A stretch of DNA of 64,000 nt from Clostridia bacterium (GTDB lineage Bacteria; Bacillota; Clostridia; TANB77; CAG-465): NCBI GenBank assembly GCA_036635835.1, contig JAVWPP010000002.1, positions 88,577-152,576 on the forward strand, given 5' to 3'. The translations under genes and the position numbers were made by a program. The notes under the pieces were generated by a model. The model searched no databases. It saw only the letters and a program-made list of their open reading frames with translations, and was not told where the DNA came from. This document shows, piece after piece, positions 7,120 through 9,089 of this stretch; the first letter of the stretch is position 1, and each line of letters starts with the position of its first letter.

Positions 7120-8157
7120 ATGAATATAATAGTTTCAAAAATACCTATAGCGGCTAATATAGCTAAGCAATATACAGGGTGCACAAGCGATGGAAAGTCT
7201 GTATATTTAGTATCAACAAATTTAGCAGAAATACATAGGTTTAATAACATGTATTTATATGAATCAAAACTAGATATGGATATGCCGTATTCAAGCATTA
7301 CATACAATAAAAATGCAGATGTTTTCTATCTATCAACCGAAGATAATTCAATAGTTTGCTTAGATAAGAATTTTAAAAATAGCAAAGGAATATCTCCAAA
7401 TATTCTAAAAATGTATAAAGATAAAATAACATCTATAGCATATTCAGAGGATAACAACGTCCTATACATAGTAAATAAAAAAGATATAATCGCAGTACAA
7501 ATGGAAACAATGGAGATAGAATTAATAACAGAAAAAATAAATAACGAAGAAAAAGATATAACATTTACAGCAGCATATAATAAAAACAGTGAAGTATATA
7601 TAGCATACACAAAAAATAGCAAATGTTTTTTAGCAAAGCTAAACAAAGAAAACAAAGTAGAAGAAGAGTTCTATGTAGCAGATGATGCAGAGATTAATAA
7701 TATTTTTGTGCATAATAATATACTAAAACTATTTATAGTAGGAAATACAAATTACATATTCGAAACAAATATTATAGAAAATAAACCTTGTAACTACTAT
7801 AGAGAAGAATTCTCCGGAAAAAGAGCTTCATATAACTCATGTTATGCAAATTACGAAAACCCAGAATGCGAGTGCAGTAATTGCTGCTGCTGTTGTTTAG
7901 AAGATTCAGAATCAAATTACGAGCAAAATATCTCAGATATAATTGAATCAATTGCCTTAGAAGAAGCTGGAATATCACATATTCTAAATGCAGAAGGAGA
8001 AAAAATACAAAAAGTTTTAGAGCATTCTAGAGATATATGTGAAATTCTAAAAGTAAACGAATCTGTAAATAAGACAATTAGCAATGTAACTATGTTAGAA
8101 CAAATACTAGTTGCTAAACTTGAAATAGTACATAATATGATTAATAAAAAGTGTTAG
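7120..8157 (+). CDS. Hypothetical protein: repeat-rich N-terminal domain, Cys run, shared C-terminal helical module
   Basis: AAGGAG RBS. About five blade-like repeats of roughly 45 aa (e.g. [42 protein letters not shown]). [15 protein letters not shown] at nt 7861-7905. C-terminal [23 protein letters not shown] module. Confidence 0.75.
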   Translation: [345 protein letters not shown]

Positions 8158-8271
8158 TATCCATTTAAACAAGATATTTAGTCTAATAAATGTAACAACT
8201 TTTCATTAAAAAACATATAGTATATTATGCTATGCCTAAAGAGCATAACAATTAAATAGGAGGTTAGTAAT

Positions 8272-8556
8272 ATGTCAATGCCAATAATCGTACCTGGAAC
8301 AGGTACAAGAGATCAAGCAATTACAGATGTAATAGAATCAGTTGCTTTAGAAGAAACTGCATTATCTCATATCTTAAATGCAGAAGGTGAAAAATTACAA
8401 GCAGTTATAGCAATGCCAGGTGTAACCGCTGATGAGTTATTAATAGTAAATAAATCAGTTCAAAAAATGGTTAATGCAATAACTAGATTAGAAACAATTC
8501 TTCAAGGAAAAATAGATATATTCTCTTGCGAAATATGTCCTAATCCTCAAGCTTAA
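8272..8556 (+). CDS. Hypothetical 94-aa protein made almost entirely of the shared helical module
   Basis: Strong [33 protein letters not shown]...[23 protein letters not shown] aligns with the C-terminus of the 7120 gene. Confidence 0.8.
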   Translation: [94 protein letters not shown]

Positions 8557-8654
8557 ATAATTACAATTAGGAACTCATGAATTTTTAATAATACAATTTA
8601 TATATGCTGTATAAATAATATGGCATATATAAAATATAAACGCAGAGGTGAAAG

Positions 8655-9089
8655 ATGCAAACAATAAATTCAATTTTAAAAATGGAAAAAAATCACGAAG
8701 AAATTGGGAAACTACTTTTAAATTCAGTTATTTTAGAAGGAGTAGCTTTAGCAAAGATCATAGAAGTTGAAAAAGATAAACTTGTGGACTATATTAACCA
8801 AAACGAGTTAAAGTCTACTAAAGACATAATAGAAATTAACGAATCTATTGAAAATGTTTTAAAAGAAGCAAATTTAGTAGAAACTACGCTCTCTAATAAG
8901 CTAAATAATATTTCAAAAATATATAATACAGAAAACAATATAGAAATACATAAAATGTACAAAGAATGCGTAGATAATAGAAATGAAAACAATCTACAAA
9001 TAAATAATAATCCTATGTGCAATAAATTTAATAATTACAATAAACTTTCTAGCATTATAAATAAAATGATTAAAAACAGTGGTGTATAA
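8655..9089 (+). CDS. Hypothetical 144-aa protein, divergent third copy of the helical module
   Basis: GAGGTG RBS. LLNSVILEGVALAKIIEVEKDKLV...INESIENVLKEANLVETTLSNKL follows the same pattern as the two preceding genes. Confidence 0.7.
   Translation: MQTINSILKMEKNHEEIGKLLLNSVILEGVALAKIIEVEKDKLVDYINQNELKSTKDIIEINESIENVLKEANLVETTLSNKLNNISKIYNTENNIEIHKMYKECVDNRNENNLQINNNPMCNKFNNYNKLSSIINKMIKNSGV

Follow-up and report, generated by a model that had tools for sequence, protein, structure and literature searches.

In a 64,000-nucleotide (nt) stretch of a genome labelled Clostridia bacterium (assembly GCA_036635835.1, contig JAVWPP010000002.1, positions 88,577 to 152,576; hereafter the window), three adjacent genes encode proteins of 345, 94 and 144 amino acids (aa) whose profile matches and fold support membership of the A-ENA family of endospore appendage subunits. 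We consider it likely that these are A-ENA ('sporesilk') fibre genes of a Clostridia bacterium that forms spores. For the 94-aa protein we predict the part of major fibre subunit; the 345-aa protein joins a beta-propeller to an A-ENA domain through a Cys-rich linker, and the 144-aa protein is an A-ENA paralogue that evolves fast and has partly degenerated.

The A-ENA family was described by Sleutel, Sogues and Remaut (Nat Commun 2026; PMC13111695) from the 'sporesilk' endospore appendage of the insect pathogen Bacillus thuringiensis israelensis (Bti; PDB 9ihh, with Q8KNV8 and Q8KNV7 as A-ENA and A-ENA1). The Bti subunit, 101 aa long, is a helical hairpin whose N-terminal latch of 13 residues runs along the fibre surface, and copies of the subunit stack into a two-start cross-alpha fibre welded by five types of autocatalytic intermolecular isopeptide bond, formed between Lys or the N-terminus and Asn, Gln or Glu (PMC13111695). 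The protein self-assembles when made in E. coli, its expression is limited to sporulating cells, with a putative sigma-K promoter, and the resulting fibres, which are extremely stable, glue the spores to toxin crystals (PMC13111695). The present cluster adds to an already described family, for which homologues in Clostridia, multi-gene clusters and passenger fusions were reported in the same study (PMC13111695).

The three genes and their parts, each gene preceded by a Shine-Dalgarno sequence, are as follows.

7120 to 8157, plus strand: 345-aa gene, encoding a propeller, a Cys-rich linker and a C-terminal A-ENA domain without latch (profile, Pfam, AlphaFold2, Foldseek)
7120 to 7767, plus strand: five-bladed beta-propeller, residues 1-216 (AlphaFold2, Foldseek)
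7768 to 7917, plus strand: Cys-rich linker, predicted to be disordered, residues 217-266 (low model confidence, Cys counts)
7918 to 8145, plus strand: C-terminal A-ENA hairpin, residues 267-342 (hidden Markov model E 2e-27; helices 267-302 and 306-342)
8272 to 8556, plus strand: 94-aa single-domain A-ENA gene (match to 9ihh_A, 45% identity to Bti A-ENA, residues for bond types 1-3), encoding an N-terminal latch at residues 2-13, a hairpin at 14-82 and a SCEICP tail
8655 to 9089, plus strand: 144-aa divergent A-ENA paralogue (hidden Markov model E 4e-7, precomputed PF26595, AlphaFold2)

An earlier note on this DNA, made from the sequence alone, had proposed that the three genes share one helical module, and a profile search bears this out. 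Our own A-ENA profile, built from 120 homologues of the 94-aa protein, picked exactly these three among the 441 six-frame open reading frames (ORFs) of the window, with E values of 4e-51, 2e-27 and 4e-7 for the 94-, 345- and 144-aa proteins and 0.1 for the next best. In pairwise comparison, the 345-aa and 94-aa proteins are clear paralogues (51% identity over 70 aa, E 6e-19), as the note's alignment of all three had suggested, whereas the 144-aa protein is far less closely related (28% identity over 67 aa and E 6e-5 with the 94-aa protein; E just 0.068 with the 345-aa protein). The note had been unable to place the module in a named family, and had held that a confident profile match to a characterised family would refute its reading. 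Such a match was found: the module belongs to Pfam PF26595 (A_ENA), for which a fibre structure has been solved (9ihh) and a role described (PMC13111695). Precomputed Pfam annotation assigns PF26595 to all three window proteins, and a search of the PDB by sequence matched residues 1-82 of the 94-aa protein to 9ihh_A, 'Ex vivo spore-silk A-ENA fibers' (E 5e-15). The same protein is 45% identical over 86 residues to Bti A-ENA from plasmid pAM65-52-4-128K (E 8e-22), and a large protein search returned more than 1000 homologues of it, all carrying PF26595. The module had no match in our copy of Pfam-A, which is older than PF26595, or in NCBIfam or PHROGs.

The predicted two-helix architecture of the module also stood. 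The helices of the 94-aa protein were checked by alignment to the solved 9ihh chain, with which it aligns over both helices with gaps of just 1 and 3 residues. AlphaFold2 was applied to the other two proteins and gave helices at 267-302 and 306-342 in the 345-aa protein and at 14-49 and 55-90 in the 144-aa protein.

For the 94-aa protein, family membership is additionally supported by the latch and by the residues of bond types 1-3. Published Bti bond positions were placed on the window proteins, on 120 short homologues and on 109 fusion homologues, and the triads of donor, acceptor and catalyst that are complete in the 94-aa protein are listed here.

Bond type 1: N-terminal amine to Q44 in Bti (catalyst E41); S2 to Q43 in the window (catalyst E40)
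Bond type 2: K42 to N64 in Bti (catalyst E39); K41 to N60 in the window (catalyst E38)
Bond type 3: K84 to E29 in Bti (catalyst E28); K80 to E28 in the window (catalyst E27)

The equivalents of K42, Q44, N64, K84, E39 and E41 are kept in 120/120 short homologues. At position 2, 117 of them have Ser or Gly, residues that permit removal of the initiator Met by methionine aminopeptidase, and M3 and P4 of the latch are invariant. Within the window, the latch signature (M-G/S-M-P, with a small residue 2) was found in the 94-aa protein and was absent from the 345-aa and 144-aa proteins. The residue sets of bond types 4 (K77-E78) and 5 (K76-Q82/E86) were found in none of the three. K77 is replaced by Leu in 119/120 and K76 by Arg in 97/120 clostridial homologues, all three window proteins included, and from the sequence of the 94-aa protein no more than six bonds per subunit are therefore to be expected, against ten in Bti. 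A stable fibre does not require all of the Bti bond types, because rec-A-ENA1 fibres, with six bonds per protomer and without types 1 and 5, show no observable loss of stability (PMC13111695). Beyond the hairpin, half of the short homologues carry Cys in their tails, and a CxxC motif like that of the window's SCEICP is found in 41/120.

The AlphaFold2 model of the 345-aa protein, computed from a 71-sequence alignment, has a mean predicted local distance difference test (pLDDT) score of 86.7. Residues 4-216 form about 21 strands with pLDDT above 90, which fits five four-stranded blades, and the top Foldseek matches in the PDB are exclusively propellers of the NHL, WD40 and YncE types (E about 1e-9; template modelling score 0.35-0.46 over the whole query), in agreement with the 'about five propeller-like repeats' noticed earlier. 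No Pfam propeller family passes the cut-off for this domain, for which weak matches only were obtained. A single-sequence search with the propeller alone against 1.8 billion representatives returned 12 relatives and no functional lead; the domain evolves fast. The fusion family as a whole has 332 homologues, many of them full-length at 24-48% identity. In the C-terminal hairpin, the equivalents of K42, N64, K84, E29, Q44, E39 and E41 are all kept, and the passenger stands in place of the latch, leaving no N-terminal donor.

Between propeller and hairpin lies the linker. The run of five Cys codons (tgc tgc tgc tgt tgt) that the earlier note had read at 7882-7896 is there, in frame, as C255-C259, and residues 230-263, which include it, have pLDDT of 40-52 and are predicted to be disordered. 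At least four Cys within the 60 aa before the hairpin were counted in 107/109 propeller-fusion homologues (mean 9.6), and 102/109 also carry Cys in the tail after it. The CCCCC run itself is confined, among the fusion homologues, to the window lineage. In four other C-terminal A-ENA fusions, judged by eye from their translations, the linkers are Ser/Thr-rich or plain, with few Cys. On these comparisons, a Cys-rich linker is a specific and conserved feature of the propeller class. A ferredoxin-like, iron-sulfur linker was considered and rejected, as no Fer4 match was obtained in 71 family members.

In the 144-aa protein, the AlphaFold2 model has a confident hairpin at residues 14-90, followed by a low-confidence helical tail rich in Asn and Lys, with two Cys. 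The equivalents of K42, N64, K84 and E39 are kept, those of E29, Q44 and E41 are replaced by G, V and D, and the N-terminus is unrelated to the latch. Searched against the large database, the protein returned itself only; its sole orthologue, at 45% identity and additionally lacking K42, was found by inspecting the neighbourhood at the related locus L012.

The arrangement of these genes was compared across genomes in a scan that took one genome per species. At least 568 stretches encode relatives, and 80 loci were kept for counts, 43 of them fully flanked. The cluster has identical gene content in four same-species assemblies labelled 'MAG: Clostridia bacterium' (MAG, metagenome-assembled genome). 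The triad is also kept outside the window genome, as L012 carries all three genes in the same order, with identities to the window of 48% (fusion), 85% (short) and 45% (third). A second related locus, L010, has the pair only, its third gene being unrelated to the 144-aa protein. This unequal divergence would fit a constrained major polymer subunit accompanied by fast-evolving accessory proteins. A propeller-A-ENA fusion lies within 5 kb of a short gene in 32/80 species loci and in 22/43 of those fully flanked, and the propeller domain is joined by an A-ENA domain in 45/46 ORFs. The triad is lineage-restricted; the short subunit and propeller fusion form a widespread paired module. The two genes are usually divergent, and the window's tandem, fusion-first order is rarer, a pattern read by hand from the locus table. 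Relatives are found mainly in genomes labelled Clostridia, Lachnospiraceae, Oscillospiraceae, Erysipelotrichaceae and 'Bacilli bacterium'; named isolates include Longibaculum muris, Clostridium collagenovorans, Faecalicatena faecalis and a Flavonifractor sp.

Several of the loci carry further genes of the family or unusual neighbours. L019, L036, L016, L053 and L068 encode large proteins (420-1450 aa) in which a passenger of adhesin type at the N-terminus (DUF11, SdrD_B, pAdhesive_15, Bact_surface_Ig-like) is combined with an A-ENA domain at the C-terminus that has no latch, and fusions of this kind are common beside short A-ENA genes in Clostridia. In Clostridium sp. KNHs205 (L005, 1846-8170), a propeller-A-ENA fusion is flanked on one side by a divergent 115-aa A-ENA gene and a 772-aa C-terminal A-ENA fusion, and on the other by a convergent cotJA-cotJB-cotJC operon; the two extra A-ENA genes were found by our own profile and are missing from the precomputed Pfam column. 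In L013, propeller and A-ENA occupy separate plus-strand ORFs (77-688 and 831-1217), which could reflect a fusion gene that has been split or frameshifted, or else an error of assembly. Divergent from the A-ENA cluster in L010 (4534-5771, minus strand) and L012 (2039-4197, minus strand), a gene of about 100 aa is followed by one or two PF18454 (Mtd_N) proteins, which could be further spore-surface proteins and are absent from the window. A-ENA gene pairs were also seen on contigs of bins labelled Muribaculaceae (L071, L080) and Mycoplasmatota (L084), which are not known as spore-forming lineages; these labels are most simply explained by mis-binning.

Signals bearing on the expression of the cluster, and a sporulation gene elsewhere in the window, were located as follows.

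7068 to 7119, plus strand: conserved block upstream of the 345-aa gene, GTAATAT ... TGAATAACAATATATAAATAAGGAGTGATAAAA, with the ribosome-binding site; alike in the window, L012 and L010, with varying flanks
8195 to 8222, plus strand: candidate promoter of the sigma-K type, AC-N17-CATATAGTA, with 49 nt between its end and the ATG of the 94-aa gene
9078 to 9107, plus strand: intrinsic terminator closing the cluster, a 13-bp stem and then a T-run, overlapping the stop codon of the 144-aa gene
31686 to 32330, minus strand: spoIIR (PF09551, E 4e-22)

The sigma-K-like element at 8195-8222 had been noticed earlier and called weak, with the remark that the motif is common in AT-rich DNA; comparison across species supports it. 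The strict motif, AC-N16-17-CATANNNTA, was scored within 150 nt upstream of the start and occurs upstream of 31/85 short A-ENA genes in the species loci, against 4/428 control ORFs, a contrast somewhat inflated by the intra-operon and spurious ORFs among the controls. Mononucleotide shuffling, which is free of this problem with the control ORFs, gave a mean of 0.75 and a maximum of 4 occurrences against the 31 observed. AT-richness does not explain the motif, because it is present upstream of 5 of the 23 genes whose upstream GC content is at least 40%. Furthermore, the GTAACA and CATATAGTATATTA blocks are kept in the window, L012, L010 and L013, and the sequences flanking them vary. The element before the 94-aa gene is probably real. 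In Bti, the putative a-ena promoter site of the same layout, CAC...N17...CATATAATA, lies 46 bp upstream (PMC13111695). That the organism carries sporulation genes, as the earlier note had said, is confirmed for spoIIR in the window.

Taken together, these observations suggest the following mechanism. The 94-aa protein, which has no signal peptide, would be made late in the mother cell from its sigma-K-type promoter. After removal of Met1, the hairpins would stack by hydrophobic knobs-into-holes packing into cross-alpha protofilaments, with the 12-residue N-terminal latch sitting in a surface groove, and stacked subunits would weld through proximity-induced isopeptide bonds of three of the five Bti types. 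The latch-less A-ENA domain of the 345-aa protein may mimic a subunit and be covalently built into the fibre or onto its end, so as to display the five-bladed propeller on its Cys-rich linker. An N-terminal passenger in place of the latch should be tolerated sterically on the fibre side or at the N-pole end, because the latch runs along the surface in the Bti structure (PMC13111695). The propeller could have a binding role, or the linker could anchor the protein to the Cys-rich spore surface. By analogy, the adhesin-type passengers of the sister fusions favour a display or adhesion role for the 345-aa protein, while the Cys-rich, CotZ-like anchor of L-ENA fibres favours an anchor role for its linker. 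With low confidence, the 144-aa protein may be a minor, capping or nucleating subunit that makes only part of the bond set.

Extending this mechanism, we tentatively propose, while holding it to be somewhat less probable than its opposite, that propeller, Cys-rich linker and C-terminal A-ENA domain define an undescribed class of fibre accessory protein, widespread across the sampled lineages labelled Clostridia and 'Bacilli'. Such a protein would add disulfide or metal coupling to the fibre, as a basal anchor or as a tip or lateral adhesin, with the 144-aa protein as cap or nucleator. Spores of gut and environmental Clostridia would then bear modular, self-welding display fibres whose passengers set adhesion.

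Several points weigh against the fibre reading or limit its detail. The source organism is known only from MAG-type assemblies. The donors of bond types 4 and 5 are lost across the clostridial clade, and fibre geometry or stability may differ as a consequence; no Bti fibre without bond type 4 has been described. The strict sigma-K motif was not found upstream of the 345-aa or 144-aa gene in the window. Lateral decoration, tip and basal anchor cannot be told apart from the residues of the 345-aa protein, because the fusions conserve both donors and acceptors. Finally, with the equivalents of E29, Q44 and E41 gone, the 144-aa protein may be no fibre subunit at all.

The number and nature of the fusions bear on whether an extended fibre is formed. 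In the clostridial loci, C-terminal fusions (33 with a propeller and 32 others) are about as frequent as the 85 short genes, and the passengers are adhesin-like: besides the propeller, DUF11, SdrD_B, pAdhesive_15 (ice-binding-like adhesive) and Ig-like domains. Short, hair-like appendages have, moreover, been speculated upon for Pasteuria (PMC13111695). Clostridial A-ENA might accordingly be a short self-welding tag for oligomerisation and anchoring, which fixes passengers as a nap or stubs on a 94-aa scaffold of few copies. We consider this unlikely, since the 94-aa protein keeps the full latch and the axial bond set needed for an open-ended polymer, and since the short protein is far more conserved than the fusion between the window and L012 (85% versus 48%), as is typical of a major polymer subunit.

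The Cys residues bear on how the proteins are cross-linked. The earlier note had envisaged coat or exosporium-type proteins joined by disulfides or metal through the Cys run; taken as the chief cross-link, this would resemble CotY/ExsY- or CdeC-type proteins. Cys in the linkers and tails of nearly all fusions (107/109 and 102/109) and the CxxC tails of short homologues would agree with this, as would the cotJA-cotJB-cotJC operon adjoining the fusion in one relative. Against it, none of the three proteins matched a coat or exosporium profile: searches of Pfam and NCBIfam for CotY/ExsY and CdeC-type families, and likewise for S-/L-ENA (DUF3992), gave no match at E up to 1. The CCCCC run is restricted to one lineage, the helical module is nearly free of Cys while its isopeptide residues are invariant, and Bti A-ENA, whose sequence has zero Cys, still forms extremely stable fibres. 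We therefore regard this explanation as improbable, more so than that of a short tag. The idea of a spore-surface hetero-oligomer was broadly right, in that the paralogues are related through one module and match a spore-associated polymer, and what differs is the chemistry: that demonstrated for the family is isopeptide bonding rather than disulfide or metal bridging, and the residues for three such bonds are invariant here. Under the fibre reading, a second, Cys-based cross-linking layer is a possibility, in which disulfides might couple the linker to the tails of short subunits or to a Cys-rich spore surface.

A fibre or matrix with no link to spores and sharing only the A-ENA fold, such as a biofilm matrix that vegetative cells release on lysis, would suit the few loci in bins labelled as non-spore-formers (L071, L080, L084), but it is scarcely credible given that these labels sit in metagenome bins that may be mis-binned, that nearly all loci are Bacillota (Clostridia and 'Bacilli'-labelled MAGs), that the sigma-K-type motif is strongly enriched and consistently placed upstream of the homologues, and that the cluster has no signal peptide or secretion gene.

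The surroundings of the cluster in the window were also inspected. Upstream, perfect sigma-70 consensus promoters (TTGACA-17-TATAAT, with TG) stand on the plus strand at 5787-5815 and 6618-6646, followed respectively by a 177-aa ORF (6001-6534, weak DUF3232 match) and a 97-aa ORF (6702-6995). These two ORFs were considered as cluster members and rejected: neither occurs in L010 or L012, and both come with sigma-70 promoters and terminators of their own. Just 3' of the 97-aa ORF, an AT-rich inverted repeat, AAAAAAGAAGAT...ATCTTCTTTTTT (7003-7035, plus strand), falls below the G+C criterion of our terminator scan; it looks terminator-like and would insulate the 345-aa gene from upstream transcription. 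Downstream, a tRNA-Met gene (9155-9230, minus strand) with its own terminator (9134-9150, minus strand) converges on the end of the cluster. The genomic context differs in related species, where the cluster adjoins EF-Ts and ribosomal protein genes, so that its position is not conserved. A prophage or plasmid origin was also rejected, as there were no phage matches and no GC anomaly, and plasmid matches are confined to the A-ENA module of Bacillus genes. Elsewhere in the window, a full-length OLE (ornate, large, extremophilic) RNA lies at 50341-50940 on the plus strand (Rfam RF01071, 357.6 bits, E 2e-101), and directly 3' of it is a 225-aa ORF (50946-51623, plus strand) with no Pfam match at E 1e-5. 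A 660-aa protein (12392-14374, plus strand) with a weak match to KAP-family P-loop nucleoside triphosphatases is encoded between comF-like and recQ-like genes.

In genomes of uncultured Clostridia without insect-pathogen toxins, this self-welding hairpin is common, and in about half of the fully flanked loci (22/43) a propeller fusion lies near the short gene. If fibres are made, they would be a major determinant of aggregation, adhesion and persistence of clostridial spores, and an A-ENA domain placed C-terminally and free of the latch would lend itself to use as a covalent docking tag, by which passengers could be displayed on a very robust fibre. 'Hypothetical proteins' of this kind can now be named in annotation. 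In the main text of PMC13111695, we found neither the propeller passenger with its Cys-rich linker and its regular pairing with the short subunit nor the comparative sigma-K footprint.

Among known systems, Bti A-ENA is the closest. It shares with the window the hairpin of about 90-100 aa, the M-(G/S)-M-P latch and 45% identity to the 94-aa protein, in which the residues of bond types 1-3 and their catalytic Glu are identical. Common to both are also the AC-N17-CATATAnTA sigma-K-type element 46-49 nt upstream, the lack of a signal peptide and the clustering of several paralogues. Unlike that of Bti, the window cluster is chromosomal, in an AT-rich Clostridia MAG, and contains no toxin genes or amidase. 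It lacks the donors of bond types 4 and 5 (L and R for K), with at most six bonds expected against ten, and adds a C-terminal CxxC tail; in place of the near-identical A-ENA1, the partners of the 94-aa protein are a propeller fusion and a degenerate paralogue.

Fusions of the A-BclA type are the nearest counterparts of the 345-aa protein. In 'A-BclA' ruffles, an N-terminal A-ENA domain precedes a collagen-like stretch and C1q, and SdrD_B and OmcB passengers also occur (PMC13111695). As in the 345-aa protein, one A-ENA domain carries a passenger beside single-domain subunits, with predicted docking and display. In the 345-aa protein, by contrast, the passenger is N-terminal and replaces the latch, is a five-bladed propeller without a Pfam family, and is attached through a Cys-rich disordered linker.

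The S- and L-ENA fibres of the B. cereus group (Ena1A/B/C, Ena3A; DUF3992) are likewise spore-associated, self-assembling and covalent, with tip or anchor accessories. They differ in being built from a beta-sandwich or jellyroll rather than an alpha hairpin, in having no sequence or profile match to the window proteins and in being joined by disulfides rather than isopeptide bonds. Connectors that contain Cys, and disulfides, are a feature of both S- and L-ENA, and the anchor of L-ENA is a CotZ-like protein rich in Cys, which is a possible analogy for the linker of the 345-aa protein. Sortase pili (Spy/SpaA-type) share the Lys-Asn/Asp isopeptide chemistry, in which Glu or Asp is the catalyst; the window cluster encodes no sortase and shows neither a signal peptide nor an LPXTG motif. 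The autocatalytic bonds of such pili form within one molecule, and sortase is needed for the intermolecular ones, whereas in the window cluster autocatalytic bonds are predicted to form between the stacked subunits themselves.

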